From: Vicinamibacterales bacterium | GTDB lineage: Bacteria; Acidobacteriota; Vicinamibacteria; Vicinamibacterales; UBA8438 | Length of the DNA stretch: 64,000 bases | Direction of reading: 5' to 3' | NCBI GenBank assembly: GCA_965199675.1 | Contig: CBDATI010000063.1 | Coordinates: 1,044 to 65,043 of the forward strand | Part shown: positions 9,398 through 50,427 of the stretch, piece after piece | Layout of the letters: the number at the start of each line of letters is the position of its first letter | How positions within the stretch are numbered: position 1 is the first letter of the stretch | Notes under the pieces: model-generated | Told to the model about the DNA's origin: nothing | The model's input: only the letters and a program-made list of their open reading frames with translations | Databases searched by the model: none | Made by a program: the position numbers and the translations under genes

Positions 9398-10861
9398 ATG
9401 CCGACCGCCCCTACCCGACGCGACTTCCTCGCGACGAGCGCCGCCGCGGCCGCTTGCCTGGCGGGGCGTCCCGCGTTCGCGCAGGCCACCGATCCGACCG
9501 ACCTGACCATCGCCGACGCGCAGCGTCTCGTGCGCCGCCGCGACCTGTCGCCGGTGGACCTCGTCGAGGCCTACGCCGCGCGCATCGGGCGCCTCGACCC
9601 TCGGCTGAACGCATTCGTGACGGTGACCGAGGAGCGCGCGGTCGAGCGCGCGCGGACCCTCGAGGCGGAGCTGGCCGCCGGTCGGTGGCGCGGTCCGCTG
9701 CACGGCATCCCCATCGCGCTGAAGGACAACATCGACACCGCGGGGGTGCGGACGACGGCGGGGAGCGCGGTGTACGGGGACCGCGTGCCGGACGAGGACG
9801 CCGAGGTGGTGACGCGGCTCGAGGCGGCGGGCGCGATCGTCCTCGGCAAGCTCAACCTACACGAGTTCGCCTACGGCGCGACGTCGGCGTTCACCCTCTC
9901 CGGGCCCGTGCGCAACCCGTGGGACGTGGACCGCATCCCGGGCGGGTCGTCGGGCGGTTCGGGCGCGGCGGTCGCGGCGCGGCTGTGCGCCGGCGCTCTC
10001 GGCACCGACACCGGGGGGTCGGTCCGCATCCCCGCCGCACACTGCGGCATCGTCGGTCTCAAGGCGACCTACGGGCTGGCGAGCATCCGCGGCATCGTCC
10101 CGCTCTCCGTCTCTCTCGACCACGTGGGCCCGATGTGCCGGTCGGTCGCCGACGCCGCCCTGATGCTGCAGGCGATGGCGGGCTACGACCCGCGGGGCAT
10201 CGCCAGCATCGAGGCGGAGATTCCCGACTACCCGAGCGCACTCCGGCGGCCGACGTCGGCGCTGCGCCTCGGCGTGCCGCGGGTCTACTACGAAGACGTG
10301 GACCCGCAGGTCCTGGCCGCAGTCGAGCAGGCGCTCGGCGTCCTCGGCGGTCTCACGGCCGGCACGCGGGACGTGGAGCTGCCGGCGCTGCCGGAGATCC
10401 GCACGGTCGGGGTCGAGGCGTACGCCTATCACGCCGATCTCCTCGCAGAGCGGCGGGACCTGTACGACGAGAGCACGCTGGCGCGCATCGAGGGTGGGGC
10501 GGAGATGTCGGCGGCCGACTACGCCGAGGCGCGTTATCAGCTCGCGCTCGTGAGAAAAGCGATCGCCGCGGTGTTCGACGATGTCGACGTCGTGGTCACG
10601 CCGACCCTGGTGGAGCTTCCCGTCAGCATCGAGGCGGCGGTGGCGTCACCGCGCGAGGCGACCGCGGTCCTGATCCGCAACACGGCGCCCTTCAACGGGT
10701 ACGGCACGCCCGCCATCAGCGTCCCGTGCGGCTTCAGCCGCGAGGGCCTGCCCATCGGACTGCAGCTCTGCGGCCGCGCCCTCGGCGAGGTCGACGTGCT
10801 CGCGCTCGCGCACGCGTACGAGCAGGCGACGGACTGGCACGAGCGGACGCCGCCGCTGTGA
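9398..10861 (+). CDS. Amidase-signature family amidase with a TAT signal
   Basis: ATG is 1 nt after the sulfatase stop (TGAcATG). Twin-arginine leader TRRDFLATSAAAAA..AFAQA. Amidase signature GGSSGGSGAAVAA. Confidence 0.9.
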   Translation: MPTAPTRRDFLATSAAAAACLAGRPAFAQATDPTDLTIADAQRLVRRRDLSPVDLVEAYAARIGRLDPRLNAFVTVTEERAVERARTLEAELAAGRWRGPLHGIPIALKDNIDTAGVRTTAGSAVYGDRVPDEDAEVVTRLEAAGAIVLGKLNLHEFAYGATSAFTLSGPVRNPWDVDRIPGGSSGGSGAAVAARLCAGALGTDTGGSVRIPAAHCGIVGLKATYGLASIRGIVPLSVSLDHVGPMCRSVADAALMLQAMAGYDPRGIASIEAEIPDYPSALRRPTSALRLGVPRVYYEDVDPQVLAAVEQALGVLGGLTAGTRDVELPALPEIRTVGVEAYAYHADLLAERRDLYDESTLARIEGGAEMSAADYAEARYQLALVRKAIAAVFDDVDVVVTPTLVELPVSIEAAVASPREATAVLIRNTAPFNGYGTPAISVPCGFSREGLPIGLQLCGRALGEVDVLALAHAYEQATDWHERTPPL

Positions 10862-10912
10862 CCGGCGTCCTGGACGAAACCTGGCCGATTGGCGACAGGC
10901 GCACGAGCGGTT

Positions 10913-10929
10913 GCAGGGGCGACCCCTGC
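10913..10929 (+). terminator. Possible hairpin downstream of the amidase gene
   Basis: GCAGGGG-CGA-CCCCTGC, a perfect 7-bp stem 52 nt after the stop codon. No U-tract. Confidence 0.25.
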
Positions 10930-11061
10930 GGGTCAGCGGAACGCATCGTCGCTCGAATGCAGCCGAGACCGCCGCCAACGGCCGCCACCCGACCGGGCAA
11001 CCGTCCGACCACGGAGCTGTGATCCGGGCGGCGCACCGGTCTGACCAGGAGCTCTCGACCG

Positions 11062-12969
11062 ATGACCAGCAGCTCGACGACACGCCATCACGCCGCCCGT
11101 CATTCCCCCTGGTTGCTGTTGCTGGCGGTCCTCGTCGCGACGCCGGCGCACGCGCAGGACGACTGGCGGCACTGGGGACGCGACGCCGGCAACCAGCGTC
11201 ACTCGCCGCTGACGCAGATCGACACCACCAACGTCTCGACCCTGGCGCCGGCGTGGCGGTACGAGATGACGAAGCCGGGCGTGCCGTCGCGGCCGAGCCA
11301 GTCGACCCCGCTCATGGTCGGCGGCGTGTTGTACCTGTCGTTCCCGTACTACCGCGTGGTGGCGCTGGAGCCGGAGACCGGTGACGTCGTCTGGGAGTAC
11401 ACGGCGCCCGGCGACTGGAACTCGCCCGAGCACCAGTTGCACTGGACGGGCGGTTCCATGCGGGGCCTGGCCTACTGGGCCGGCGACGACCGGACGCCCC
11501 CCCAGATCGTGTTCGGCACCGAGGAGGGCGAGCTGATCTCGCTCGACGCCGCGACCGGCATCCCCAATCCGCGGTTCGGCAGCGACGGCTTCGTCGACCT
11601 CAAGACCCCCGACGTGATGAACGGCTTCCCGAACATGCACTACGGCATCTCGTCGGGGGTGGCCATCTGGGAGCACCTCGTGTTCACCGGTGTCCACAAC
11701 GCGGACGAGACGGGCTCGAAGGGGCCGGCGGGCGACGTGCGCGCGTGGGATCTGCGGACCGGCGAGCTCGTCTGGACGTTCCACACCGTGCCCCATCCCG
11801 GCGAGTTCGGCAACGACACGTGGCTCGACGGTTCGTGGCGCAACGTCAGCGGCGCCAACACGTGGTCGTTCTTCACCATCGACGAGGAGCGCGGCATCCT
11901 CTACATGCCCCTGGGGTCCGCCCACAACGACTTCTACGGCATGGACCGCCCCGGCGACAACCTCTTCGCGAACTCGATCGTGGCCGTCGACGCCGTGACG
12001 GGCGAGCGTCTGTGGCACTTCCAGGCCGTCCATCACGACCTGTGGGACCTCGACATGCCGGCGCCGCCGATCCTGTTCGACGTCGAGCGGGACGGCGAGA
12101 CGATACCCGCCGTGGGAGTCGTGACGAAGTACCCGGTGCTGTTCATCTTCGACCGGGTCACCGGCGAGCCGATCTACGAGATAGAAGAGCGCCCGGTGCC
12201 GGCCGGGGACATGCCCGGGGAGTACTACTCGCCGACCCAGCCGTTCCCGGTGAAGCCGCCGCCCTTCGGCCGCATCCGCTTCACGATGGACGACATCGCG
12301 ACCGTGACCCCCGAGCACACGGCCGCGTGCCGCGAGCTGCTGATGCAGTACGACGGCGGGCGGAACCGCGGTCCCTACACGCCGCCGTCCGAGGAGGGTG
12401 CGCTCGTGTTCCCGTCGACCGGCGGCGGGACGGAGTTCACCGGCGGCACCTTCGACCCGAGCCTCGGGCTCTACATCATCAACTACGCGGACACCGGCCA
12501 CATCAGCCAGCTCGTGAAGGTGGAGGACGACCCCGATCGCCGCGGCTACGTGGGTCCTCCCGAGTCGCGCCGGCTCTACTGGCACGTCGTCACCCGGCCG
12601 TCCGTCGACGGCTGGCCGTGCTGGCAGCCGCCCTGGTCGAGGCTCGTCGCGGTGGACGTCAACCGCGGCGAGATCGCCTGGATGATCCCGTTCGGCACGG
12701 TCGAGGGCGCGCCTCCCGGCCTGCTGACCGGCGCCCCCAACTCGCAGAAGGGTGGGCCGACCTCCACCGCGGGGGGCGTGCTCTTCATCGGAGGGGCCAG
12801 CGACCGGCGGTTCCGCGCCTACGAGACGAAGACCGGGCGCGAGCTGTGGAGCGTCGAGACCGAGCAGATGATCAGCGGCGCCAACCCCATCACCTACATG
12901 GGGAAGGACGGAAAGCAGTACGTGGCGGTGGCCGCGGGCACCACGCTGCTGGCCTTCACCCTGCCGTGA
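11062..12969 (+). CDS. Secreted PQQ-dependent (quinoprotein) dehydrogenase, intact paralog of 1-1787
   Basis: 635-aa uninterrupted ORF with AGGAG before the ATG. Signal peptide ..LLLAVLVATPAHAQ. Quinoprotein repeats: DNLFANSIVAVDAVTGERLWHFQAVHHDLWD, STAGGVLFIGGASDRRFRAYETKTGRELW. Confidence 0.9.
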   Translation: MTSSSTTRHHAARHSPWLLLLAVLVATPAHAQDDWRHWGRDAGNQRHSPLTQIDTTNVSTLAPAWRYEMTKPGVPSRPSQSTPLMVGGVLYLSFPYYRVVALEPETGDVVWEYTAPGDWNSPEHQLHWTGGSMRGLAYWAGDDRTPPQIVFGTEEGELISLDAATGIPNPRFGSDGFVDLKTPDVMNGFPNMHYGISSGVAIWEHLVFTGVHNADETGSKGPAGDVRAWDLRTGELVWTFHTVPHPGEFGNDTWLDGSWRNVSGANTWSFFTIDEERGILYMPLGSAHNDFYGMDRPGDNLFANSIVAVDAVTGERLWHFQAVHHDLWDLDMPAPPILFDVERDGETIPAVGVVTKYPVLFIFDRVTGEPIYEIEERPVPAGDMPGEYYSPTQPFPVKPPPFGRIRFTMDDIATVTPEHTAACRELLMQYDGGRNRGPYTPPSEEGALVFPSTGGGTEFTGGTFDPSLGLYIINYADTGHISQLVKVEDDPDRRGYVGPPESRRLYWHVVTRPSVDGWPCWQPPWSRLVAVDVNRGEIAWMIPFGTVEGAPPGLLTGAPNSQKGGPTSTAGGVLFIGGASDRRFRAYETKTGRELWSVETEQMISGANPITYMGKDGKQYVAVAAGTTLLAFTLP

Positions 12970-13831: not shown

Positions 13832-15265
13832 ATGCCCACCGACCCCGCCGACCTCGAGTTCACCGCCGACGAGATGCGGCGCATGGGGCACGCCACCGTC
13901 GAGCGGCTCGTCGACCACGTCCTGAGCCTGGAGACGCAGCCGGCGCGGGGCGACGTGGACGCCGCCGATCTCTGCCGCCGTCTCCGCGAGCCCGCGCCCG
14001 AACTGGGCGTCGACTACGAACCCCTGCTCGACCGGCTGCTCGCCGAGTGGGTGCCGCGGTCGTTCACGTCGTCGGGGCCCGGTTATCTCGCCTACATTCC
14101 GGGCGGCGGGCTGTACCCCGCCGGGCTCGCCGACCTCGTGGCCGACGTGGTCAACCGCTACACCGGCGTGCGGCTGGCCGCCCCGGCCCTGGTGCAGCTC
14201 GAGGCCAACGCACTCGACTGGCTGCGCGACTGGATGGAGTTCCCCGCCGGGACGCGCGGGCTGTTCACGACCGGCGGGTCGATGGCGCATTTCAACGCGG
14301 TGCTGTGCGCGCGCGAGCGGCATCTCGGCGCCGACATCCGTCCGGGCGTGCTGTACGGCTCGACGCAGATGCACCACTCGATGGCCAAGTCCGCCCGGCT
14401 CGCCGGCATCATGCCCGACCGGATCAGGGCGGTCCCGGTCGACCAGCGGTTCCGGATGGACGTGGCGGCCCTGGCCGACCTGATCGCCACGGATCGCCGG
14501 GCCGGTCTTCGTCCGTTCTGCGTCGCGTCGGCGGCGGGCACGACGAACACGGGCGCGGTCGATCCGTTGAACGCGGTCGCCGATCTGTGCGCTCGCGAAG
14601 GGCTCTGGCACCACGTGGACGGCGCCTACGGGGCGTTCTTCCATCTGTGTCCCGAGCTGCGGGCTCTCATGCCCGGGCTCTCGCGGGCCGATTCCCTCAC
14701 TCTCGATCCGCACAAGGGCCTGTTCCTGCCGTACGGCACCGGGGCCCTGCTCGTGCGCGACGGCGCCGCGCTGCGCCGGGCGCACGAAGCGACCGCGAGC
14801 TACCTGCCCGGCCGGGCCGACGACGACGAGTACGACCCCCACGTGTACGGGCCGGAGCTCTCGCGTGGGTTCCCGGGCCTTCGCGTCTGGCTCTGCGTGA
14901 AGCTGTACGGCGCCGAGCGGTTCCGCACCGCCCTGGCCGAGAAGCGGGCCCTCGCCGTCGAGGCGGCGGCGCGCGTCGCCGAGGTCCCGGGGGTAGTGAT
15001 GGCGGCCCCGCCGCAGGTGTCGCTGTTCGCGTTCCACCTGCGCTGGCCGGGATCGGGCCTGGCCGACGAGAACGAGGCGACCGAGCTGCTGTTGGAGCGT
15101 GTGAACCGGCGCAACCGGGTGATGCTGTCGGGCGCCGAGGTGGCGGGGAGGTTCCTGGCGCGGGTCTGCGTGCTCAGCTTCCGCACCCGCGCCCGTCACA
15201 TGGAGGCGTGCGTGACGGACCTCGCCGAGGAGGCGGCCGACATTCTGGCGGCCGCCGCGGGATGA
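13832..15265 (+). CDS. Group II pyridoxal-dependent (amino-acid) decarboxylase
   Basis: Start ATG 13832 (MPTDPADLEF). TTGGSMAHFNAV, HVDGAYGAF and the PLP-lysine motif SLTLDPHKGLFLPYG. 477 aa. Confidence 0.85.
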   Translation: MPTDPADLEFTADEMRRMGHATVERLVDHVLSLETQPARGDVDAADLCRRLREPAPELGVDYEPLLDRLLAEWVPRSFTSSGPGYLAYIPGGGLYPAGLADLVADVVNRYTGVRLAAPALVQLEANALDWLRDWMEFPAGTRGLFTTGGSMAHFNAVLCARERHLGADIRPGVLYGSTQMHHSMAKSARLAGIMPDRIRAVPVDQRFRMDVAALADLIATDRRAGLRPFCVASAAGTTNTGAVDPLNAVADLCAREGLWHHVDGAYGAFFHLCPELRALMPGLSRADSLTLDPHKGLFLPYGTGALLVRDGAALRRAHEATASYLPGRADDDEYDPHVYGPELSRGFPGLRVWLCVKLYGAERFRTALAEKRALAVEAAARVAEVPGVVMAAPPQVSLFAFHLRWPGSGLADENEATELLLERVNRRNRVMLSGAEVAGRFLARVCVLSFRTRARHMEACVTDLAEEAADILAAAAG

Positions 15266-15509
15266 TGCGACGTGGCGGGCTTGTCGGTTGCTGGCCGTGC
15301 GGGCAACGCGGCATGATTGGTGCAAGCCGGATGCACTTCTGTGGAGGCGGCGCTATCGGCGCCGCTCCCGATGCCGGCTTGGGTCTCCAGAACCCGCGGC
15401 CGTGACCGGGGGCAGCCTGATCGTGCGCGCGGCCGGTGTCGGTCCTTCCTCCGCGGGATCCGGGAACCAGGTCGACACTGGCAGACTCGTCCCGGCCCTG
15501 CCGCTGACC

Positions 15510-16496
15510 TCACCCCCAGAATCCGACGACCCGCTCGATGACCCAGAAGCTCGCGACGGCGCCCAGGCCGTACGCGGCGGCCTGATCGAGCCGCGCGCGC
15601 CGGGCAGGCGTATCGAGGAGCCGGTAGGCAGTCCACAGTACGACGCCGCACGCGGCGGCGAAGACGATCTGCCCGAGCTCGATGCCCACGTTGAAGAGCA
15701 GCAGCGTCATGGGGACATCGCGGCCCGGCAGGCCGGTGTCGAGGAGGGCGCCGGCGAAGCCGAACCCGTGCATCAGCCCGAACGCGAACGCCATCGTCCA
15801 CGGCCTGGCCGCACCGGTGCTCGTGTCGTCGCGCCGCAGGATCTCGAACGCCAGGTAGACGATCGAGAGCGCGATGAAGGCCTCGACGGGTGGGCCCGGC
15901 ACGCGCACCACGTCGAGGACCGTCATGCCGAGGGTGATGGAGTGCGCGATGGTGAACGCAGTGATGGTGGCGACGAGGCGGCGCCACCCGCGGACGAGCA
16001 GGATCATGCCGGCGACGAACAGGAGGTGATCGACGCCGCCCAGGATGTGATCGACGCCGAGCACGAGCCGGTCCCAGGTCGTCGCCGTGCCCGGACTCAA
16101 CGGGATCTCGGTCAGCGCGCCGGACGCCACGCGGGTCAACCGGTTGCCGTGCTCGTCCTCGACGCGCACCAGGACGTCGACGAAGCCGCCCGCGAGGCCC
16201 GCGAGGCCCATCACCGGCGGAGCGCCGGTCAGGTCGCAGAAGAACCGTTGCTCGACGACCAGGCTGTCCGCCTGTCGGAAGCGGTCGTCCGGGCCCCTGG
16301 GCGCGCAGGCCGCGGGCAGGCGCACCTCGATGGGCCACGCGGTCGCGCCCGTCACCGGAATCTTCAGCACCGACACGAAGTCGCCGGGCCCCAGCGCGCG
16401 CACCTCGAGGAACGCGAGGCGCGTCTCGTGGCCGTGCGCCGGCGCGGCGAACGAGCACAGCGCCATCGCCGTCAACACCCGGGCCGCCGACCTCAT
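15510..16496 (-). CDS. HupE/UreJ_2-type membrane protein with an N-terminal periplasmic domain
   Basis: Signal peptide MRSAARVLTAMALCSFAAPAHG followed by HE. Membrane core: GVDHILGGVDHLLFVAGMILL, AFTIAHSITL, FGLMHGFGFAG, FNVGIELGQ. The start is uncertain; an alternative ATG is at 16538. Confidence 0.8.
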   Translation of the reverse strand: MRSAARVLTAMALCSFAAPAHGHETRLAFLEVRALGPGDFVSVLKIPVTGATAWPIEVRLPAACAPRGPDDRFRQADSLVVEQRFFCDLTGAPPVMGLAGLAGGFVDVLVRVEDEHGNRLTRVASGALTEIPLSPGTATTWDRLVLGVDHILGGVDHLLFVAGMILLVRGWRRLVATITAFTIAHSITLGMTVLDVVRVPGPPVEAFIALSIVYLAFEILRRDDTSTGAARPWTMAFAFGLMHGFGFAGALLDTGLPGRDVPMTLLLFNVGIELGQIVFAAACGVVLWTAYRLLDTPARRARLDQAAAYGLGAVASFWVIERVVGFWG

Positions 16497-16663
16497 CAAC
16501 GCGTGGAAGACGTCTGTTCGCTGAGCCGGCCTGTCCATGCGGGATGGCGACGAGCGATTGAGCCGATGGGAGCCGCCGGTGTCCCCTTCACCCCCGATGG
16601 TCGCACCTCGGCGATCGCGGCGGTGATGGTGGGGAAGTCCCGTCGATGCCCGGGCCGCGGTCT

Positions 16664-17539
16664 TCATGGCTGCACCAGGTCGCCGATGGAGTCGAACGGC
16701 GCCACCTCGACCTCGTAGCGGACGCGCATCTCGGCGTAGCGCTCGGATTCGCGCGCGGTGATGTGGTCGCGGCGCCAGTCGTCGATCACGGTGTTGCGCA
16801 CGTCGTCCAGCGTCTGTCGGCGTCCTGCCCGGTAGGCGTCCACCTGCACGACATGCACGCCGTATGCCGAGGGGACCGGTCCGAACCACGTCCGCCGTGG
16901 CCCGGACCGGGCCGCGTGCTCGACGACGGCATCGCGGAAGGCGGTGCCGAAGATCTGCTCCAGCCGGTCGGCGTCGGTCAGCGTCAGCGTCTTGGCCGCG
17001 TGGAAGCTGTCGTCGTCGGCGCTCCCGCCCGCGAGCAGGGCCTCGAGCGCCAGACGGGCGTCGGCTTCCGCCGAATCTCCCCGGCGGTCGCGGCTGAAGA
17101 AGCGGTGGGTCAGGGTGAGCGCGGCCGGCTCGACATAGCGGTCGGCGTTCGCCTCGAAGTACCCTCGCAGGTCGTCGGGGCTCGGCTCGGCCGTCGCCGC
17201 GACGTCGTTCAGGGCCATCTCCAGCTTCTCCGCGAGGCGGCGGCGCACGAGGACGTCGTTCTCGTCGAGGTCGAGGGCCAGGGCCTCGCGATAGAGGACC
17301 TCCTCGCGGACGCGGTCCACGACGAGCCGCGTCAGCTCGTCACGGGTCGGCGGACGCCTCCACTGAGCCTGCCACAGGGCGGCCAGCGTCTCCAGCTCGT
17401 ACCGATCGATGACGATGCGCCGGTCGTCGGCCGGGGCCTGGCTCCCCACCAGCGTATACAGGACGAAGAGCCCGGCCCCGGCCGCGAAGAAGCGCGTCAG
17501 AGGCTCACGCCAGAGCCTTCGCCACGGGGATGCGTTCAT
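16664..17539 (-). CDS. Membrane-anchored parvulin-like peptidyl-prolyl isomerase (PpiC/SurA-like)
   Basis: 291-aa ORF. N-terminal anchor FFAAGAGLFVLYTLV. C-terminal rotamase-like segment (WFGPVPSAYGVHVVQVD). The start is 17 nt downstream of the DUF3604 gene stop. Confidence 0.7.
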   Translation of the reverse strand: MNASPWRRLWREPLTRFFAAGAGLFVLYTLVGSQAPADDRRIVIDRYELETLAALWQAQWRRPPTRDELTRLVVDRVREEVLYREALALDLDENDVLVRRRLAEKLEMALNDVAATAEPSPDDLRGYFEANADRYVEPAALTLTHRFFSRDRRGDSAEADARLALEALLAGGSADDDSFHAAKTLTLTDADRLEQIFGTAFRDAVVEHAARSGPRRTWFGPVPSAYGVHVVQVDAYRAGRRQTLDDVRNTVIDDWRRDHITARESERYAEMRVRYEVEVAPFDSIGDLVQP

Positions 17540-17556: not shown

Positions 17557-19260
17557 CTAGTTGTCCGGCATGTACCAGATCGGGGACGTGTAGGCGCGCT
17601 CCTGCAGTGTCGGCATCACGTCGCCGCGCGGGGGGAGGCCGGCCGCCGCGGTGTCGTAGGTCGACCAGCGCGGGGTGGGTATCTCGATCACCCGCACGTA
17701 GTAGACCGCGTGCACGTCGGGGTCGAAGTCGGGGTCGCGCCAGACCGCCTGCAGCGAGGCGGCGCCGATGTCGTTGGTGTAGGTGGCGCGCATGACGTCG
17801 ACGGTGTTGCCGACCGGCGGCGCCTTGCCGGTGGGGCCGACGCGCCGGCCGTCGGACAACGCGACGTCGTAGATGCGCTCGAACGTCTCACCCTCCGCGC
17901 TCCACCCCTTGATGACCTGGATGCGGTCGAGGTTGGCCGCGACGGGGTCCTTCGCGGCGCGGATGACGAATGTCGGTGCTTCGCCCTCGGCCCCGCGCAG
18001 CACCCCGCCCATGGGGACGCCGCCGGCGTACCCCTGCGCGACCCAGTCGTCGCCGTCCAGCACGTCCTCCGCGTAGTCCCAGCCCCCGAAGAAGCGCACG
18101 GTGATGCGGGTCCCGGTGGTGGCGTAGGTCTCCCGGCGCCGGAACGCGGCGTAGAGCTCGTCGCGGGTGTTCTCGTTGGCCCACGCCGCGGTGAGCCCGG
18201 CGGCGCTGCGGGCGACGAACGGCAGCCGGCTCCAGGTGTTGGTGACCAGTCGGTCTTCGAGCGTCCCGTCCACCCGGTCGCCCGACAAGCTCGTCATGTT
18301 GTCCTCTTCCACCGCCGAGGTGCCGGAGTGGAAGTCGGTGGCGCCGACGAAGCCGAACTGGAACGGATTGAAGCCCCGCTCGGCCTGCATCCGCACCCCG
18401 TTGACGAGCGCCTCGCGCGCGTAGCTGCCGGGCACGAGTCCGTCGACGCGGACCACCCCGGCGTTGGGCGCGTCTCCGCCGATGGGGCGGTTCGCGAGGA
18501 GGAGCTCGGGGAACAGCTCGAAGTCGGCGAACTCGTCGTTCGGCGACAGGACCGGGTGTGTCTCGGAAGTGCCCTTGGCCTGGGTGATCTCCACCACCGG
18601 CTCGTTCCGCAGGCGCTGCGCCGCGTAGTCGGCGGTCATCGGCGCCCCCGCGAAGTCGACCAGCGCGAACATCTTGCCGTTGCTGACGTTCGAGTTGTGG
18701 GGAATCGCCAGCGCCTCGACGCCGGCGGCGCGCTGGGCGTCCAGAAAGTCCCAGAGGTCTTCGGGGTTGTCGGAATCGAGCCGCGAGAATGGGAACGGCA
18801 GGTCGTCGGTGCCGGCGAAGATCACGTTGCGGTGCAGGTTGCCCTCGCGGGTCCCCACCGTCCACTCGTAGGCGGCGAACGTGGTGAACTCGCCCGGCGC
18901 GTAGTGCCTCACCGCCGCCGCGACGATCTCCGCCCACACCGCGCGCCCGAGGTTCGGCGGGGGATTGGGCCCCGCCTGCCTGCGCCCGAGGTTCTCGGCG
19001 TGGTCCGTCACCGCGAGGAAGTCGAGCGGGGTCCGGAGCTGAATCTCGATGCCGCCCACGTGGGGGACCGCCTCGCCCTTCGCGTAGCGGTAGGCGTCGT
19101 CCGGCGTACGCGTGGTGCCGAACGAGGCGGCGTCGTTCGAGTAGCGCGTGTGCAGGTGCAGGTCGCCGAAGTAGACGTTCTCCGACACGGCCGGGCCCTG
19201 GGCGGCGACCCCCGCCGCGAGCAAGGTCAACGGCCACAGCTTCGCGACGACTCTCATCAT
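17557..19260 (-). CDS. Secreted DUF3604-family protein (PHP-like metal-dependent hydrolase fold, function unknown)
   Basis: 567-aa ORF with a signal peptide (MMRVVAKLWPLTLLAAGVAAQ). PHP-type metal motif YFGDLHLHTRYSNDA, then FLAVTDHAE and IPHNSN. Confidence 0.85.
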   Translation of the reverse strand: MMRVVAKLWPLTLLAAGVAAQGPAVSENVYFGDLHLHTRYSNDAASFGTTRTPDDAYRYAKGEAVPHVGGIEIQLRTPLDFLAVTDHAENLGRRQAGPNPPPNLGRAVWAEIVAAAVRHYAPGEFTTFAAYEWTVGTREGNLHRNVIFAGTDDLPFPFSRLDSDNPEDLWDFLDAQRAAGVEALAIPHNSNVSNGKMFALVDFAGAPMTADYAAQRLRNEPVVEITQAKGTSETHPVLSPNDEFADFELFPELLLANRPIGGDAPNAGVVRVDGLVPGSYAREALVNGVRMQAERGFNPFQFGFVGATDFHSGTSAVEEDNMTSLSGDRVDGTLEDRLVTNTWSRLPFVARSAAGLTAAWANENTRDELYAAFRRRETYATTGTRITVRFFGGWDYAEDVLDGDDWVAQGYAGGVPMGGVLRGAEGEAPTFVIRAAKDPVAANLDRIQVIKGWSAEGETFERIYDVALSDGRRVGPTGKAPPVGNTVDVMRATYTNDIGAASLQAVWRDPDFDPDVHAVYYVRVIEIPTPRWSTYDTAAAGLPPRGDVMPTLQERAYTSPIWYMPDN

Positions 19261-19391: not shown

Positions 19392-20606
19392 CTACCGCCC
19401 GTCGTCCTTGCCCTGGTCGTCGCCGCGCTTTCCGCCGGGCTGGTTGAAGTAGTCGCTCTTGTGCGGGTAGTCGTCGCCCACCACCCCGCCCTCACGCCCC
19501 CGCGCCGACGGCACGACCCAGTCGCAACCGGGGGTGTTCTCCGGTCCCGCGAGCCAGCAGTCGACGAGCTCCTGGTAGTCCTCGGCCATGCTGCCCGGGG
19601 CGTGCGGCGGCATGAAGCTGTTCACCTCGAGCTGCGCGGCCTCGAAGATCTGCGCAATCTCCATCGGGGCGCTGTGGCAGCCGAGGCATCGGTTGCCCTC
19701 GATGTGGATGGTGCGCATGTCCCAGTCGTCGCCCCCGACGACGTAGTAGGGCACGTCCCGGCCGGTGATCTCGGGCATGACGGGGCGTCTCGGGTCGTCG
19801 GGGTCGCGGGCGCTGTCCATGAAGGGGTCGTGGATGAACGGGCCCGACTGGTGGCACTGGACGCATTGCACGACATCGGGCTCGCCGTCGCCGTTCATGT
19901 CGGCCGGGGGCGGGGGCATGAAGGCGTCGTTGAAGTCGGGGTCGTCGGGTCCCGGCATCGCGCCCACCATGCGGTGCCCGTCGAACGAGACCCACGGCCT
20001 CTGGTCCCGGATTTCGGCGTTTGCGGGATGCCCCTCGGGCAGCGACTTCCGCCCGTCGGCGGCCTCGAAGAAGCAGGTCGCGCCCGACCGGCGGTTGTAG
20101 CCGATGAGCTGCACCGAGCCCCAGCCATGCCGTTGGAGGTTCTCCGGGCCCACCGAGCGGCAGAAGTAGACCCAGGAGACGTGCGGCAGGGAGTTGCCGC
20201 CGGCGTCGCGTCCCTGCACGTGTCCGAGGCGCGAGCCCGGTGAGCAGCCGCCCCGCAGCCCGTCCGGGTTGTCGCAGGCATGGTTGCCGGGATCCTCGAA
20301 CACCTCGACGCCGTCGACGGTGATGGGGATGAGGACCCCGTCGTCGCAGGCGACCTTGGGGACGCGCCCGAGCTCGGGCTCGCACATGGCGGCGTACTCG
20401 GTAGCCAGGAAGGGCATCCGCGGCCCGGAAACGGGTGCTTTCGCCGTGGGCGTCTGCTCCAGGGCGCAGGTCGCGGCGCCGGCTGCCTCGAGCGCGGCGC
20501 TCAGAGCCGCCCCGGACCCGGGCGACGACGCGCCGCCGGCCGACGACAGCAGGACCGGAACGAGCAGGAACAGGGAGCAGCCGGCAGGTCGTGACTTGAG
20601 GGACAT
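19392..20606 (-). CDS. Secreted Cys-rich di-heme (2 x CXXCH) protein of unknown function, paralog A
   Basis: Start ATG 20606 (MSLKSRPAGCSLFLLVPVLL). Heme motifs CVQCH and CLGCH. Collinear with 20817-21917 (EYAAMC.PELG, GVLIPITVDGVEVF.DPG, SVQLIGYN, GATCFFE, YYVVGG.DWDMRTIHIEGN.CLGCH, MPPHAPGS, GPENTPGCDWVVP). Confidence 0.75.
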   Translation of the reverse strand: MSLKSRPAGCSLFLLVPVLLSSAGGASSPGSGAALSAALEAAGAATCALEQTPTAKAPVSGPRMPFLATEYAAMCEPELGRVPKVACDDGVLIPITVDGVEVFEDPGNHACDNPDGLRGGCSPGSRLGHVQGRDAGGNSLPHVSWVYFCRSVGPENLQRHGWGSVQLIGYNRRSGATCFFEAADGRKSLPEGHPANAEIRDQRPWVSFDGHRMVGAMPGPDDPDFNDAFMPPPPADMNGDGEPDVVQCVQCHQSGPFIHDPFMDSARDPDDPRRPVMPEITGRDVPYYVVGGDDWDMRTIHIEGNRCLGCHSAPMEIAQIFEAAQLEVNSFMPPHAPGSMAEDYQELVDCWLAGPENTPGCDWVVPSARGREGGVVGDDYPHKSDYFNQPGGKRGDDQGKDDGR

Positions 20607-20816
20607 GGTGAGATTATGGCGTGGCGCACCGATGGCGTCCATCCGCAACCGGGCGAGGGACCCTTTCGGTCGTGGCTCCTCCGGTCATCGGACCCGGTGT
20701 TCGGTTACGGCGTCCGGCCGTCCTGCGCTCAGCCCGGGTTGTGCACCCGGGAGGTCCCGGCGGTTGTGTCGAGGTCGCGTGCCCGTCAGGGGGCGGCGCG
20801 GCGCGAGGAGAGCGCG

Positions 20817-21917
20817 TCAGCACCCCGGCCGGCGCCATTCCTCACCTGCGCGGCGCCCGTCGTCCCCCGTCCCGCGGTTGAAGCGGGCCGCGGCGTGCGG
20901 GTAGTCCGCCCCCACGATGCCGCCGTCGCAGCCGCCCGCGGGCGGCACGACCCAGTCGCAGCCGGGGGTGTTCTCGGGGCCGTTCTCCCAGCACGCGACG
21001 AGCTCGGCGTAGTCGGCGGCGAGGGAGCCGGGGGCGTGGGGCGGCATGTGCTCGTTGGGGTCCCAGTGGTCGCCGGTGTACTCGGCCAGGGTCTCCATGC
21101 CGATGCGGTGGCATCCGAGGCACCCGTTGCCCTCGATGTGGATGGTCCGCATGTCCCAGTCCTGTCCCCCGACGACGTAGTAGGGCGGGTTGGGGCCGCG
21201 CACGACCGGAAGCACCGTTTGGCGCGGGTCCTCGGGAAGGCGCGCGCTGTTGATCCACGGGTTGTGGTTGAACGGATCGGCCTGATGGCAGCGCACGCAC
21301 TGCACGTCGCCCGGCGTCGTGTAGGCCTGGTCGAACGCCGGATCGTCCGGCCCCGGCAGCACGCCGAGCAGCCGGTTGTTCTCGTCCACGTGGGTCCAGG
21401 GCCGGTTGTCGCCCGACTCGAAGAAGCAGGTCGCCCCGGTCTCGTAGTTGTAGCCGATCAACTGCACGGAATCGGGCATGTCGAAGCCCACCACGTCATC
21501 GCGCCCGTCGTGGCGGCAGAAGCTGACCCACACCACGTCGGGCCGCGGCGCGCCGTCGGCGTCCCGGCCCGCGTAGCGCTGCAGGCTCGACCCGGGCATG
21601 CAGTCGCCAATCTGCAGACTGGCCTTGTCGCACTCGTGCAGGCCGGGGTCGTCGAACACCTCCACACCGTCGACGGTTATCGGAATCAGGACCCCCGCGC
21701 CGCAGTCGACGGTGGGGGCCACGCCGAGCTCGGGCGCGCACATCGCGGCGTACTCTCTCGCGCCGGCGGGCATGGGGCCGCAGGTCGTGCCCGGCATGCA
21801 CTCGTCGGCGGGGGCCTGGGGCGCGCGTTCGCCGGTCGCGCTCACCGCGAAGAGGGCCAACGTGCAGAGCGCTGTCAAACCGATGTTGCGCGTGAGGTTC
21901 TTTCGAAATGAGGCCAT
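20817..21917 (-). CDS. Secreted Cys-rich di-heme (2 x CXXCH) protein of unknown function, paralog B
   Basis: Start ATG 21917 (MASFRKNLTRNIGLTALCTLALFAV) preceded by GAGGAG. Heme motifs CVRCH and CLGCH. The ORF-track 484-aa version over-extends upstream. Confidence 0.75.
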   Translation of the reverse strand: MASFRKNLTRNIGLTALCTLALFAVSATGERAPQAPADECMPGTTCGPMPAGAREYAAMCAPELGVAPTVDCGAGVLIPITVDGVEVFDDPGLHECDKASLQIGDCMPGSSLQRYAGRDADGAPRPDVVWVSFCRHDGRDDVVGFDMPDSVQLIGYNYETGATCFFESGDNRPWTHVDENNRLLGVLPGPDDPAFDQAYTTPGDVQCVRCHQADPFNHNPWINSARLPEDPRQTVLPVVRGPNPPYYVVGGQDWDMRTIHIEGNGCLGCHRIGMETLAEYTGDHWDPNEHMPPHAPGSLAADYAELVACWENGPENTPGCDWVVPPAGGCDGGIVGADYPHAAARFNRGTGDDGRRAGEEWRRPGC

Positions 21918-22028
21918 GGTGCTCCTCGAGACGGTCCGCGTACGAAGAATGCCCGCGCGGCCGGTCGAGGTCAAGGTCAATTCCGCGGGCCTCGGAACGG
22001 CGACGCCGCCCGCCGGGGCGGTCACGTG

Positions 22029-22280
22029 CAGGCGGGGGGGCTCTCGCCGCAGGCGGTCCGGCGCATCATCGGTCGGCGGGCCGCAGACGCCGTATCGACG
22101 GCCGCGTATCGCGTCACTCGCTCCGGGTCGGGGCGGCGCAATCCCTCGCCGCCGCCGGGGCCAGCCTCGCCGACATGCAGACGGCCGGCCGGTGGAAGGA
22201 CGCCAGGATGCCGGCGCACCTACGACCGCGGCGCACCGGCGGGCCGCGGCGCCGTCGCTCGACTTCGACACAGCGCCTGA
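22029..22280 (+). pseudogene. C-terminal fragment of a tyrosine recombinase/phage-type integrase, with 2 frameshifts
   Basis: Frame 3: GLSPQAVRRIIGRRAADA. Frame 2: IDGRVSRHSLRVGAAQSLAAAGASLADMQTAGRWKDARMPA (H-x-x-R box). Frame 3 again: RTYDRGAPAGRGAVARLRHSA-stop (catalytic Tyr context). No N-terminal or core-binding part is present upstream. Confidence 0.7.
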
Positions 22281-22298
22281 CGGGCTCAGGGGGGGGCC

Positions 22299-22847
22299 TC
22301 ACCACGAAATCGAAAATGTTGGCGTGATCAGAAAATAGAACCCCGTCACCCTGGCGCCGACGTAGAGCTTCACATCATCCGTCGCCGTCAGTTTCCATCC
22401 TCTCGGCTCTATACGCCTCGTCACTTCGATGAGCATACCCGGTATCGGCATCAATGCCGGCACGCCGAACGCCACTCCTGTGATGCTGCCGGTCAGGATG
22501 CACTCCCCGCCGCACGTGAACCGGTGTCTGAACACCAGGAAGGCAAAGAGGCTGGCGTGTTCGTGTTCTCTGTCGCGGCGCGGGAGTAACACCCCTCCGC
22601 TCGCCTTCACCCCGATCCCCCAATCGCCCGCCCACTTCGTGGCCCCAAACTCCACCGCCGGGCCGCCACGAAAATCGCTGAGATCGCCTCTTGAGATCGG
22701 GACATTCCATCCCCCGCCCCACTCGACATCCCATCCCCCGCCCCGCACCCACTCGACATCGAGACCGGAACGAGTCTGCGCCGCGGCGGTTGTCGCCGTC
22801 CACGTCACCGCCGCGACGACAACCGCCAACAGATCAGGGAATCTCAA
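22299..22847 (-). CDS. Possible small outer-membrane beta-barrel-like protein in a region of locally lower GC
   Basis: Candidate TTG start at 22847 gives MRFPDLLAVVVAAVTWTATTAAAQ (signal-like). Gly/aromatic-rich alternating sequence ending ..TPTFSISW (aromatic C-terminus). Internal DVEW-GGGW repeat. No clear RBS. Confidence 0.35.
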   Translation of the reverse strand: MRFPDLLAVVVAAVTWTATTAAAQTRSGLDVEWVRGGGWDVEWGGGWNVPISRGDLSDFRGGPAVEFGATKWAGDWGIGVKASGGVLLPRRDREHEHASLFAFLVFRHRFTCGGECILTGSITGVAFGVPALMPIPGMLIEVTRRIEPRGWKLTATDDVKLYVGARVTGFYFLITPTFSISW

Positions 22848-23550
22848 TGTCGTACCGCGCTGTGTATATGCTGTCCGCGCCCCAATTACCCCAAGGTGGC
22901 CTGTGAGGCCGGCCGCACTCGGTATTGGCTGCCCACACCTCGCGATTCTGGGTGTACAGGCCCAGTCGGAGGGTGCCCGTCTGCCCCTCGGCGACACTTG
23001 CAGCGAGCGCCACCAGCACCGCCACGACCACCAACAACCGTGGCAATCGCCTACCCTCCCCGTCGTTGGAAGGCCCTTCGGAAATTGGCCGTCGGGCCGG
23101 TTCTCTACAACGCGCCCCGCTGCGGTCTGAACCGATTTGGGGTCTCCACCTGTTCCTGCGCCGAAGCGCGGTCTTGTATTCGGTGGACGGCCCGACGATG
23201 AGTTGGGATTCTCGCATCGGAACGCGCTGTAGAGTTGCCGGCAAGCCTCCACCACCACGGTCCTGCGTGTCAAGCGCCCGTCGGGCCGCGGTGCCCCTCG
23301 GCCGCAAGGGCCGCGTCGAGCGCCGCTCGAACCTCGCCGGGGTCGGCGCCGACGGCCGCCGCGATTGCGCCGGCGCATCGCCTGAGAGCGACTATGCTTC
23401 CGGCGCCGCCGGGCATGCCGCCGGGGCGCGACCATCTCCCAGGCAGCGGAAAGAGCCGCCGCTCCATTCGAACGGCGATGCATCCCGCCGGCGGGGCGCG
23501 GGTGTGCGCGCGCCGCCGGGCGCCGGTGGCCACGCGGAGTTTCATCACGG

Positions 23551-23990
23551 GCTGACGGGATGGCGCATCGGCTATGGGGCGGGGCCCAGGGAACTGATTG
23601 CGGCGATGGCGAAGGTGCAGTCGCAGACCACGAGCGGGGCGTCGAGCATCAGTCAGTGGGCTGGCGTCGAGGCGCTCGACGGCGACCAGGCGTTCATCGG
23701 GCGCAGCCTGACGGTGTTCCGGACGCGGCGCGACGTCGCCGTCTCGCGGCTCGGCGAGGCGAACGGGCTGCCTGCCGCGCGCCGGACGGTGCCTTCTGTC
23801 TCTACGTCGACTGCGGAGGCGTCATCGGCAAACGCACACCGGCCGGGCGCGTCGTCGACAACGACGGCGACTTCGCTGCTATCTGCTCGAGACGAGGAGG
23901 TGGCGGTGGTCCACGGCGAGGCGTTCGGGCTGTCACCGTACTTCGGCGTCTCGTACGCCCTCGCGCCGATCGCCTGGAGGAAGCGTGTCG
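23551..23990 (+). pseudogene. Truncated, frameshifted copy of the 3' third of the aminotransferase gene at 4849-6051
   Basis: [49 protein letters not shown] matches [49 protein letters not shown]. Later segments (ARPDGAFCLYVDCGGVIGKRTP / EVAVVHGEAFGLSPYFGVSYALA / DRLEEAC) are spread over two frames. There is no 5' two-thirds. Confidence 0.8.
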
Positions 23991-24074
23991 TTGTTCCCCT
24001 GACCGGCTCGTCGAAATCGAGACGAACCGCGGGGAGAAGGCTCGCGGGTTCTGCCGCCCGCCAGCGCGACGGCT

Positions 24075-43207: not shown

Positions 43208-45433
43208 TCAGTCGAGCAGATCGAAGCGGTCGAGTGTCATCACCTTCGTCCAGGCCCGGACGAAGTCGTGCACGAACTTCTCCCCGCCGTCGTCGGCCGC
43301 ATAGACCTCGGCCACCGCGCGCAGCTCGGAGTTCGAGCCGAAGATCAGGTCGACCGGCGTGGCCGTCCATTTCAGCTCGCCCGAGGCTCGATCGCGGCCT
43401 TCGTAGAGGCCCTCGGTGGACGACGGCGTCCACGCCGTCGACATGTCCATGAGGTTGACGAAGAAGTCGTTGCTCAGGGCGCCGGGGCGGTCCGTGAACA
43501 CGCCGTGGGCAGAGCCGGCGGCGTTGGCGTCGAGGGCCCGCATGCCGCCCACGAGCACCGTCATCTCGGGGACGGTCAGGTTCAGGAACGCCGCCTTCTC
43601 GACCAGCATCTCCGCCGGCGACCGGGCCGCGCCGACGGCGAAGAAGTTGCGGAACCCGTCGGCGGCCGGCTCGAGCAGGGCGAACGAGTCTGCGTCTGTC
43701 TGTTTCTGCGAGGCGTCGGTTCGGCCGGCCGCGAAGGGCACGTCCACCTCGACGCCGGCCGTCTCCGCCGCCTGCTCGATGGCGGCGGCGCCGCCGAGGA
43801 CGACGAGGTCGGCCAGCGAGACCCGCTTGCCGCCCGACTGTGCGCCGTCGAAGTCGCTCCGGATGCCCTCCAGGGTGTCGAGGACGCGGCTCAGCTCGGC
43901 CGGGTCGTTGGCGGCCCAGTCTCGCTGTGGCGCGAGGCGAATGCGCCCTCCGTTGGCGCCGCCGCGCATGTCGGTCCCCCGGAACGTGGAGGCCGAGGCC
44001 CAGGCGGCCCGGATCAGTTCGGCCGTCGACAGTCCGGAATCCAGGATGCGGGCCTTCAGCGCGGCCGCGTCCCCGGCGTCGATCAGGGCGTGGTCAACTT
44101 CGGGAACCGGGTCCTGCCACACGAACTCCTGGTCGGGGGCCAAGTCGCCGAGGTAGCGCGAGGTCGGCCCGAGGTCGCGGTGGGTCAGCTTGAACCAGGC
44201 GCGGGCGAAGGCGTCCTCGAACTCTTCGGGGTTGTCGAGCCAGCGCGAGGTGATCTCGCGATAGGCGGGGTCGACCTTCAGCGCGAGGTCGGTGGTGAGC
44301 ATCATCGGCGCATGGCGCACCGACGCATCGTGCGCGTCGGGCACGAGGTCCGACGCGGCGCCGTCGGCCGGCTCCCACTGGATGGCGCCGGCGGGGCTCC
44401 GGGTCTGCACCCACTCGTAGCCGTAGAGGTTCTCCAGGAAGTTGTGGGTCCAGGCCGCGGGGTTCATGGTCCACGCCCCCTCCAGACCGCTCGTGATGGT
44501 GTCGGCGCCGTGGCCGGCCCCGTAGCTGTTCTTCCAGCCGAATCCCTGCGCCTCGATGTCGCCGCCCTCCAGCTCCACGCCGACGTACTGCGCGGGGTCG
44601 GCGGCGCCGTGGGCCTTGCCGAACGTATGGCCGCCGGCAATCAGCGCGACCGTCTCCTCGTCGTTCATCGCCATGCGTCCGAAGGCCTCGCGGATGGCGT
44701 GGGCCGCCGCCTGCGGATCGGGGTTGCCGCCCGGTCCCTGGGGATTCACGTAGATCAGGCCCATCTGGGTGGCGCCGAAGGGATGACGCAGCGCGCCGTC
44801 CTCGCCGCGGCGGTCGAACGCGAGCCACTCACCCTCGGGCCCCCAGTTGACGTCCTCGGGCCGCCAGGCGTCGGTGCGGCCGCCGGCGAAGCCCAGGGTC
44901 TCGAAGCCCATCGACTCCATGGCGACGGTGCCCGCGAGAATCAGCAGGTCGGCCCAGGACATGCTGCGGCCGTACTTCTGCTTGAGGGGCCAGAGCAGCC
45001 GCGTCGCCTTCTCCAGGTTGCCGTTGTCGGGCCAACTGTTGAGGGGCGCGAGGCGCTGCAACCCGCCGTCGGCGCCGCCCCGGCCGTCGAGGGTCCGGTA
45101 GGTGCCGGCGCTGTGCCACGCCATGCGGATGAAGAAAGGCCCGTAGTGCCCGTAGTCGGCCGGCCACCAGTCCTGGGAGGTCGTCATGAGCGCCGCCAGA
45201 TCGGCCTTCACCGCGTCGAGGTCGAGGCTCTCGAACGCCTCGCGGTAGTCGAAGTCCTCGCCGAGGGGACTCGACCCGGGAGAGGCCTGGCGCAGCGGCT
45301 CGAGGCTCAGCCGGTCGGGCCACCAGTAGTCGTTGTCCGGCGACCGGTCCTGGGCGCCGGCGGGGACGGCCGGCAGGACGAGAGAGAGGGCGAGTGTCGC
45401 CAGGGCAACCGAGGATATCGTTCTCCTGAGCAT
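43208..45433 (-). CDS. katG: Catalase-peroxidase KatG with an N-terminal signal peptide
   Basis: 741-aa [45 protein letters not shown] and a duplicated peroxidase fold. N-terminus [28 protein letters not shown]. Confidence 0.95.
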
Positions 45434-49442: not shown

Positions 49443-50010
49443 GGCGCCCCTCCTTCCCGTTGCCGCCGACGACGTCGCGCCCGGGGACGCCGACTCCGTC
49501 GGCGAGAGAGGCGGTGGCCTCGCCGTTCGTGACCGTTTCGTGCCTGGCCGCGAGAGCGCCGCTCTTGGCGACGGCGTGAATCGCCCGGCGCACGCGGACG
49601 AACGTGCCGCAGCGGCAGATGTTGGTGACGGCGGCGTCGATGTGCGCGTCGCTCGGGTCGGGCCGCCGCGCGAGAAGCGCCGAGACGGCCATGATCATGC
49701 CCGACTGGCAGTACCCGCACTGCGGCACCTGGTGGTCTGCCCACGCCTGCTGCACGGGGTGCAGGCGGCCGTCGGCGGCGAGGCCCTCGATGGTCGTGAT
49801 GGGCATGCCCTCGACCGCCGAGACCGGCACGGTGCAGGTGCGGACGGCGCGGCCGTCCACATGCACGGTGCAGGCCCCGCAGGCGGCGATGCCGCAGCCG
49901 AACTTGGTGCCCGTCAGTCCGAGCGTGTCGCGCAGGACCCACAGCAGCGGCGTATCCGGCTCCACGTCCACTGTGCGGGTCTGACCGTTCACGTCAAGTG
50001 TGATCGCCAC
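49435..50010 (-). CDS. [2Fe-2S]-binding small subunit (IorA type)
   Basis: GTG 50010 lies 5 nt after [36 protein letters not shown]. Overlaps the large-subunit start by 8 nt. Confidence 0.85.
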
Positions 50011-50427
50011 CGCGGCCTCCCGTCGCGCAAGGATGTCTCTCCCGATAGTAGCGCATTCGGGCACGGCGGGCGGCGCGGTGGGCGTGGCGCCCGCCGGGCA
50101 CGGGCGCGCCGGTGCCAGTCTGCAGCCGTGGCGCCGCCAGACGGCCGAGGCGCCCGCCCGACGGGGCGCGACCAGCGAGAGTCGCTGGCGTGCGCCGTGC
50201 ACGACGCCGTCTCACAGCAGGTGCGCATCCCGCCCGGCAACTGTCGCTCCGCCGGTGGCAGTCGGAGGGGATGGACGCGACGACATCGGCTGACGGACGG
50301 GAACGAATGCGTTCGGCCCCTCGGGCGCTGCGCTGCGGGCCGTACGAACATCAGCGCGATTCGCTTCGTCTCCAGGTAGAGTGCGAAGGACTCGGTCGCC
50401 CGGGTTGCGTCGGTTCCGGCGTGTCTG

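Follow-up and report, generated by a model that had tools for sequence, protein, structure and literature searches.

Predicted exported di-heme c-type proteins of an unnamed family, without a counterpart among solved folds, encoded by adjacent genes in a Vicinamibacterales genome

The stretch of DNA considered here, the window, is the 64,000 nucleotides at positions 1,044 to 65,043 of contig CBDATI010000063.1 in the assembly GCA_965199675.1 of a Vicinamibacterales bacterium (Acidobacteriota), and on its minus strand are two adjacent genes, A and B, for cysteine-rich proteins of 366 and 404 amino acids, each with two CXXCH motifs. The reading preferred for them, with a probability put at about one half, is that A, B and their relatives are di-heme c-type cytochromes of new fold that would accept electrons from periplasmic dehydrogenases. 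It is probably as a family and as a fold that they are new, with a function that falls within a well-known kind. What carries this is the conservation of the heme motifs and of one candidate ligand, the outcome of profile and structure searches, and the position that relatives occupy in dehydrogenase operons.

The gene pair and its products

Gene A starts with the ATG at 21917, 5 nt before which is a GAGGAG ribosome-binding site, and gene B with the ATG at 20606. An earlier note, made from the letters of this DNA, had described two adjacent same-strand genes of these lengths, with long identical blocks in common, two CXXCH motifs in each and secreted, cysteine-rich products. All of this is borne out. 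The two open reading frames are present, and BLASTP alignment of A with B (53% identity over 340 columns, E 1e-114) recovers the identical blocks PYYVVGG.DWDMRTIHIEGN.CLGCH, MPPHAPGS and GPENTPGCDWVVP; the heme motifs are CVRCH and CLGCH in A, and CVQCH and CLGCH in B; A has 17 cysteines and B 14. Judged by sequence, both N-termini are Sec-like, with positive residues leading into a hydrophobic stretch and then small residues. Just these two copies of the family are present in the host genome.

A scan of 8.5 kb for a sigma-70-like consensus gave a single site, that of B, with 0.2 expected, and because this promoter-like site ends 7 nt before its ATG, B may have a transcript of its own, possibly a leaderless one. 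No Shine-Dalgarno sequence is visible upstream of B.

Heme motifs, paired cysteines and candidate ligands

Conservation was assessed with an alignment of 167 full-length members, whose identity to A extends down to below 30%, and with a second alignment of 101 rows that spans both clades, the distant one dealt with below being included. In the first (numbering is that of A) C207, H211, C266, C269 and H270 are present in 167 of 167 members and C210 in 166, and among the 167-178 full-length members practically none departs from the two CXXCH motifs, a single one having lost one cysteine. This exceeds by far what chance would give. A methionine 21 residues after H270, on the C-terminal side of the CXXCH, is nearly as constant: M291 is present in 164 of the 167 and invariant in the 101 rows, a conservation of 95-100% depending on the alignment. 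The other invariant columns of the 101-row alignment are C96, G161 and the six motif positions, with D97, R135, G161 and T163 in a beta domain classed as near-invariant, together with W254, which in sequence is between the motifs.

Cysteines outside the motifs have a different history. They are lost in pairs by whole lineages, with phi coefficients for joint occurrence of 0.97 for C60-C164, 0.96 for C72-C134, 0.92 for C40-C330, 0.84 for C309-C320 and 0.58 for C96-C106, whereas loss of any of the four motif cysteines is all but absent. This paired loss points to structural disulfides formed in an oxidising compartment, and from its sequence A looks to have five disulfides, and B, without the C40-C330 pair, four. 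The host genome also has three Cytochrom_C_asm (PF01578) genes above cut-off. Given the motif conservation, the disulfide pattern and these maturation genes, it is very likely that two c-type hemes are covalently attached, one per CXXCH.

The conserved candidates for axial ligands are the two proximal histidines and M291, and one heme is probably His/Met ligated through this methionine of the MPP motif. From the alignments, the candidate for the fourth axial ligand is variable between clades. At position 218 there is a His in 84-85% of members, but some lineages have Arg or Thr there and the clade linked to molybdenum (Mo) enzymes has Met-Tyr (within DPFMYSP); H260 is present in just 72-75%.

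Absence of a named family and of a matching fold

The earlier note had found no recognisable family for the pair, and after profile searches and structure prediction this stands. Pfam and NCBIfam scans of A and B gave nothing at family cut-off, and no significant match for either was found in PDB sequences by phmmer or with a profile of 32 sequences, the profile aligning only to insignificant short stretches beside CXXCH motifs. When 32 members were scanned singly at E <= 1, the recurring Pfam families were all c-type cytochrome families and all sub-threshold, namely Paired_CXXCH_1 (11 members), Cytochrome_CBB3 (10), Cytochrome_C7 (9) and NapB (6). With the class I profiles (PF00034 and PF13442) the best score for A was 12.7 bits against a cut-off of 27, and the best E among the 32 members was 0.0055, while CCP_MauG (PF03150) matched none of the 32 at E <= 1.

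Two AlphaFold models were made. The first, with 32 sequences, has a pLDDT (predicted local distance difference test score) of 81.7; the second, with 101 sequences, has a pLDDT of 88.0 and a pTM (predicted template modelling score) of 0.84, with core residues 50-345 mostly above 90. Both have an N-terminal helix, then a beta sandwich (strands within 111-187), followed by a loop- and helix-rich region in which both motifs are situated. Foldseek comparison of both models with 350,542 PDB chains gave no match, the best E values being 0.32 and 0.34 with template modelling (TM) scores of at most about 0.13, and the top entries being unrelated beta sandwiches, none of them a cytochrome. As modelled, the fold is thus without a match, and new relative to the solved structures in the PDB.

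Extent of the family and its subfamilies

A word-indexed search yielded 253 relatives, every one of them unnamed or termed 'hypothetical protein', and two look-ups by exact protein matched no record. HMMER, run exhaustively over 1.84 billion cluster representatives, gave 451 clusters at 50% identity, and scanning of prokaryote genomes, one for each species, gave 253 loci. The closest loci are in metagenome-assembled genomes (MAGs) of Vicinamibacterales, where homologues of A reach about 90% identity. Further hosts belong to Thermoanaerobaculia/'Candidatus Multivorans', Holophagales, Gammaproteobacteria and Gemmatimonadota, with Planctomycetota, Verrucomicrobiota, Myxococcota and Hydrogenedentota also represented; several look marine as judged from isolate names and record titles alone. 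The family's spread over phyla is patchy, and so it is within Acidobacteriota, where 16 of 401 genomes, belonging to 8 of 227 genera, have it.

A maximum-likelihood tree built from 94 non-redundant members has A in a clade of 31 rows (SH-aLRT 97), B in a neighbouring one of 21 rows (SH-aLRT 87) alongside sequences from other phyla, and the distant relatives in a third, deep clade of 28 rows. Close homologues of B (84-94%) were found only in metagenome assemblies and in nine of 17 closely related Vicinamibacterales loci, in three of which A and B are 3-4 kb apart. Of the description of the pair as tandem paralogues, adjacency and 53% identity stand, but the genes belong to separate old clades and B is in only those nine close loci. 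Since the tree puts them in different old subfamilies, a recent tandem duplication is ruled out; A and B are old paralogues that have been juxtaposed. (In the three loci with separated copies, L002, L006 and L047, A is at 10001-11095 and B at about 14200-15900, with other genes in the 3-4 kb between, and from B to DUF3604 is another ~3 kb.)

That the distant clade is homologous to the family of A and B is supported by an hhalign probability of 100% (E 1.6e-48, 264 columns), and A is 30% identical to the distant-clade protein of locus L111 (E 2e-20). Domain fusions also occur (P0136, P0094, P0103, P0120 and P0111). In P0136 ankyrin repeats precede the di-heme module, and in others Por_Secre_tail, CHU_C (type IX secretion C-terminal sorting) or dockerin domains come behind it; because of these fused sorting and dockerin domains, some members seem to be displayed outside the cell. 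In a distant group, L150-L177 (e.g. L162:6254-9754 and L171:5391-8909), the di-heme module is N-terminal in proteins of ~1170 amino acids with a PPC (pre-peptidase C-terminal) domain, and in L156 and L165 of that group there are long same-strand open reading frames ending in a Cytochrome_CBB3 domain.

Position of relatives in dehydrogenase operons

The most consistent context is that of the distant clade, with whose profile 80 metagenome loci were retrieved. In 33 of them the di-heme gene is third in a tight same-strand row with gaps of ~100 nt or less, after a gene for a ~930-residue Mo subunit (MoCoBD_1, MoCoBD_2) with a twin-arginine signal and one for a [2Fe-2S] subunit (Fer2, Fer2_2), the Mo subunits being 38-100% identical to each other. 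Four further loci of this Mo-linked group have no detectable Mo or [2Fe-2S] gene; their contigs begin ~120-420 nt before the di-heme gene.

Comparable arrangements are present among A-type members. In L015 (Vicinamibacterales, 79% identical to A) and L073 (Gammaproteobacteria, 57%) the A-type gene comes after genes for a [2Fe-2S] subunit and an IorB-like Mo subunit, with a gap of 17 nt in L073. In L053, L056 and L061 a pyrroloquinoline quinone (PQQ) dehydrogenase gene is directly upstream with gaps of less than ~50 nt, and in one further locus a PQQ-dependent GSDH gene is upstream of the di-heme gene. To the earlier note it has thus to be added that the family does have informative context, members elsewhere filling the cytochrome slot of Mo/[2Fe-2S] operons or adjoining PQQ dehydrogenases.

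Other neighbours of A/B-type genes are diverse, including TauD, short-chain dehydrogenase/reductase (SDR), 2-oxoglutarate (2OG) oxygenase, esterases, sulfatases and kinases as well as PQQ enzymes, and all-against-all clustering of A-type neighbours revealed no partner common to different clades. TauD was considered as a partner and set aside as probably incidental, the one copy examined (L087) being without a signal peptide; the SDR and 2OG oxygenase beside B-type members, also without signal peptides, are likewise probably incidental.

Of separate interest is a sub-clade of seven loci (41-100% identical; L097:868-6112, L098, L099 and L100-L103), in which the di-heme gene precedes that for a short (~390 amino acids) LodA-like quinoprotein (LodA_N, LodA_C). 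In L100-L102, the longest three that differ in sequence from the query cluster, genes for a radical SAM protein and an FAD tryptophan-halogenase-like protein are also present. The cluster seems to encode an enzyme system of tryptophylquinone type, so far undescribed, in which the di-heme protein would either accept electrons or serve in maturation. In two unrelated lineages the gene beside the di-heme gene is of the PPDK_N/Rph_4th/PEP-utilizers (rifampicin-phosphotransferase-like) type (L088/L089, 2576-5437 on the minus strand; L179, 6865-9684 on the plus strand).

Likeness to and difference from known systems

A conserved iorA-iorB-cytochrome c cluster has been described, in which, it is proposed, the Tat-exported enzyme passes its electrons to the cytochrome (PMC6365646). 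With respect to such clusters, e.g. that of PS417_10880 in Pseudomonas simiae, the 33 distant-clade and two A-type loci have the di-heme gene in the same operon slot, and the acceptor role proposed is the same (PMC6365646). To those class I-type multi-domain cytochromes, however, A and B have no relation in sequence or fold, and no Cytochrom_C domain was found in them above cut-off. The membrane-bound Mo aldehyde dehydrogenases of acetic acid bacteria have a cytochrome subunit with three hemes; A and B would have two, and an extra disulfide-rich beta domain. They are also predicted to be soluble, not membrane-anchored as the known cytochrome subunits are, and the copies in the window are outside such an operon.

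Motif 2 of A and B has features in common with class I cytochromes (PF00034, PF13442), i.e. a CXXCH, helices, a conserved Met-Pro-Pro and a long C-terminal helix, and it is at residues 266-314 that the sub-threshold Cytochrome_CBB3 matches of 10 of the 32 members are placed. However, the heme region is modelled as part of a single 300-residue fold and not as a separate domain, and Foldseek points to no cytochrome. Di-heme cytochrome c peroxidase (CCP) and MauG (PF03150) are alike in periplasmic location, in having ~350 residues and in two distant c-hemes, one probably His/Met ligated, and the nearly invariant W254 between the motifs in sequence is a further point of comparison. The difference is in the N-terminal half, predicted here to be a disulfide-bearing beta sandwich in place of a second cytochrome-like domain, and in there being no profile or fold match. 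Among PDB sequences the sole cytochromes touched by the family profile were cytochrome c'' of Methylophilus (1e8e, E 0.1) and the deca/undeca-heme outer-membrane cytochrome UndA (3ucp, E 0.011), in short stretches by the CXXCH, none significant, and the resemblance is at the level of the motif and not one of homology.

Candidate partners in this genome

Some 25 kb from A and B, the window has genes for an IorAB-like Mo/[2Fe-2S] pair, the [2Fe-2S] subunit being encoded within 49435-50202 and the Mo subunit, with a Tat signal, by 47280-49442. This Mo subunit is 52% identical to the one whose gene directly precedes the A-type gene in L015. Beside the window's pair there is no cytochrome gene, with genes for a haloacid dehalogenase (HAD) hydrolase and KatG following, and a gene for a TonB-dependent receptor is divergent upstream. 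A and B themselves do not come directly after Mo and [2Fe-2S] subunit genes. PQQ dehydrogenases are numerous, with well over 35 paralogues (tblastn matches of at least 35% identity) and ~80 beta-propeller matches in the 5.3-Mb genome (e.g. on C20, C59, C8 and C29), and one is within the window. The partner of A and B, for which gene order in relatives is the guide, could be the window's IorAB-like pair or the PQQ dehydrogenases.

Carrier, enzyme or local module

On the preferred reading, A and B would be exported by Sec to the periplasm, where their folds would be stapled by the five or four disulfides and a heme attached covalently at each CXXCH. With their signal peptides cleaved off, they would then serve as soluble electron acceptors or shuttles, taking electrons from Tat-exported Mo/[2Fe-2S] enzymes of the IorAB type and from PQQ dehydrogenases, and handing them on toward the respiratory chain. 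Homology, conservation of motifs and of disulfide pairs, export signals, maturation genes and gene order in relatives are what the sequences show; heme attachment, the ligands, the way electrons flow and the partner enzyme here are what we infer.

Several findings weigh against it. The clade with the operons is ~25-35% identical to A, and its function may differ. Among dereplicated A/B-type loci a dehydrogenase gene is directly upstream in just ~6 of 52 and TauD in 11 of 52, and most A/B-type members stand alone, the adjoining genes being unrelated or having cytoplasmic products. Directly beside A and B in the window there is no dehydrogenase gene, but those for a hydrolase-like DUF3604 protein, a peptidyl-prolyl isomerase (PPIase) and a HupE permease. 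Proximity to PQQ dehydrogenases is weak evidence if relatives have as many paralogues as this genome, and it has been down-weighted as general evidence for that reason. Lastly, a disulfide-rich beta domain of ~150 residues, with C96 invariant and D97, R135, G161 and T163 near-invariant, exceeds the needs of a simple carrier and could be a substrate site.

It is on this beta domain, with the same five residues, that the main rival to the carrier reading draws, namely that the proteins are di-heme enzymes. In these, as in bacterial di-heme peroxidases, MauG or the thiosulfate dehydrogenase TsdA, a His/Met heme would feed electrons to or from a second, reactive heme near the N-terminal beta domain. 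Such an enzyme could reduce peroxide, oxidise a small molecule or mature a partner protein oxidatively. Conservation of just three of the four axial ligands to be expected, residue 218 and H260 being variable, is in keeping with an enzyme, as is the stand-alone situation of most members, which would fit one that acts autonomously, and the sub-clade before LodA-like quinoprotein, radical SAM and flavoprotein genes recalls cofactor-maturation systems. However, a varying distal ligand is equally explained by redox tuning to different partners, neither profile nor fold has any likeness to CCP/MauG, TsdA/SoxA, P460 or other heme enzymes, and it is in the cytochrome-subunit slot of dehydrogenase operons that the context is conserved best. 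A catalytic role is regarded as unlikely, though deserving of more weight than the two alternatives that follow.

One of these is that A and B form a lineage-specific periplasmic module with the DUF3604, PPIase and HupE proteins, for example in supplying electrons to, or removing them from, a metal-dependent DUF3604 enzyme, or doing so in metal handling. B and the DUF3604 gene are on the same strand with 131 nt between them, and the order A-(B)-DUF3604-PPIC-HupE is kept in 15 of 17 close loci. Yet the link is kept in none of 64 more distant loci, which makes it at most as old as a synteny block at the level of a family; the close relatives L010 and L011 carry A but lack the trio, a promoter-like site of its own precedes B, and DUF3604 resembles metallohydrolases of the PHP/CehA type, which need no redox partner. 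Such a module is considered improbable. More improbable still is that the CXXCH motifs are without heme and that, in a secreted protein rich in cysteine, they serve as redox-active dithiols or as ligands of some other metal. Richness in structural cysteines and the failure of any cytochrome family to reach cut-off would be compatible with this, but the His after each CXXC is invariant, and invariant or nearly so is the Met of the MPP motif, of a sort that c-type cytochromes typically have; structural cysteines go in pairs and motif cysteines essentially never; every recurring weak profile match is to a c-type cytochrome family; and relatives are placed where a cytochrome c subunit is expected.

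Neighbouring genes and features of the window

The earlier note had the DUF3604 gene directly downstream of the pair on the same strand and an integrase fragment next to it; the former is confirmed, and the latter too, as a weak match. The integrase remnant (HSLRVG...) corresponds to positions 115-161 of the 172 of the Phage_integrase profile and adjoins the start of A. The lowest G+C in the window (0.693) is at 22001-24000. Coordinates are collected in Table 1.

Whether DUF3604 and HupE genes co-localise with family members elsewhere, a check that the note had proposed, was surveyed by tblastn with the window's DUF3604, PPIase and HupE proteins over 81 loci (17 close and 64 distant), most with ~10 kb of flank. 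Of the 17 close Vicinamibacterales loci, 15 have the DUF3604-PPIC-HupE trio beside the family gene. None of the 64 distant ones has it there, and two of them have only a DUF3604 homologue of 36-37% identity, several kb off and on the opposite strand. As a family-wide partner DUF3604/HupE is thereby rejected: DUF3604 is a neighbour within the Vicinamibacterales lineage only. A literature search on DUF3604 gave nothing relevant.

Table 1. Positions in the window of the gene pair, its motifs and other features mentioned
Feature	Position	Strand	Basis or remark
Gene A (366 aa)	20817-21917	-	Open reading frame, translation; A-type subfamily, predicted exported di-heme protein
Gene B (404 aa)	19392-20606	-	Open reading frame; B-type subfamily, predicted exported di-heme protein
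Heme motif 1 of A, CVRCH (C207-V-R-C210-H211)	21285-21299	-	Translation checked
Heme motif 2 of A, CLGCH (C266-L-G-C269-H270)	21108-21122	-	Translation checked
M291-P-P of A, candidate distal Met ligand	21039-21047	-	Conservation of M291
Heme motif 1 of B, CVQCH (residues 248-252)	19851-19865	-	Translation
Heme motif 2 of B, CLGCH (residues 307-311)	19674-19688	-	Translation
M332-P-P of B, counterpart of M291 of A	19605-19613	-	Translation
Putative signal peptide of A, ~residues 1-28, MASFRKNLTRNIGLTALCTLALFAVSAT	21834-21917	-	Read from sequence; low-pLDDT N-terminal helix in model
Promoter-like TGGACG-17-CATAAT	20613-20641	-	Ends 7 nt before ATG of B; pattern match only
DUF3604 gene	17557-19260	-	Downstream of B, 131-nt gap; Pfam E 8.9e-210
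PPIC-type rotamase (PPIase)	16664-17539	-	Pfam
HupE_UreJ_2 permease	within 15510-16889	-	Pfam
Tyrosine recombinase C-terminus remnant	21908-22327	+	Weak Phage_integrase match, E 0.009
IorAB-like Mo/[2Fe-2S] pair	47280-50202	-	Pfam Fer2_2, MoCoBD_1, MoCoBD_2; ~25 kb from A and B
KatG	43208-45433		Downstream of IorAB-like pair
PQQ-dependent dehydrogenase copy	11161-12966	+	

Implications

A wider proposition, put forward tentatively and as somewhat short of an even chance, is that the di-heme proteins form an undescribed superfamily of new fold, with a disulfide-stapled beta sandwich fused into a two-heme core, that has been recruited repeatedly, as a dedicated acceptor of electrons in the periplasm, by at least three classes of dehydrogenase or oxidase (Mo/[2Fe-2S], PQQ and LodA-like quinoproteins), the fourth ligand being swapped (His, Met/Tyr or none) according to the partner. 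Marine, sponge-associated and soil bacteria are rich in periplasmic Mo and PQQ dehydrogenases, and the route of electrons from them is often unknown because no recognisable cytochrome adjoins them. If the carrier reading is right, an unannotated cytochrome family of hundreds of clusters would fill part of that gap, and annotation pipelines could give a name to what is now a 'hypothetical protein' but makes up the third subunit of Mo enzymes throughout a clade. The family would also show a structurally new way in which two c-type hemes can be held, and its variable fourth ligand would provide a natural series for studies of how redox potential is tuned.

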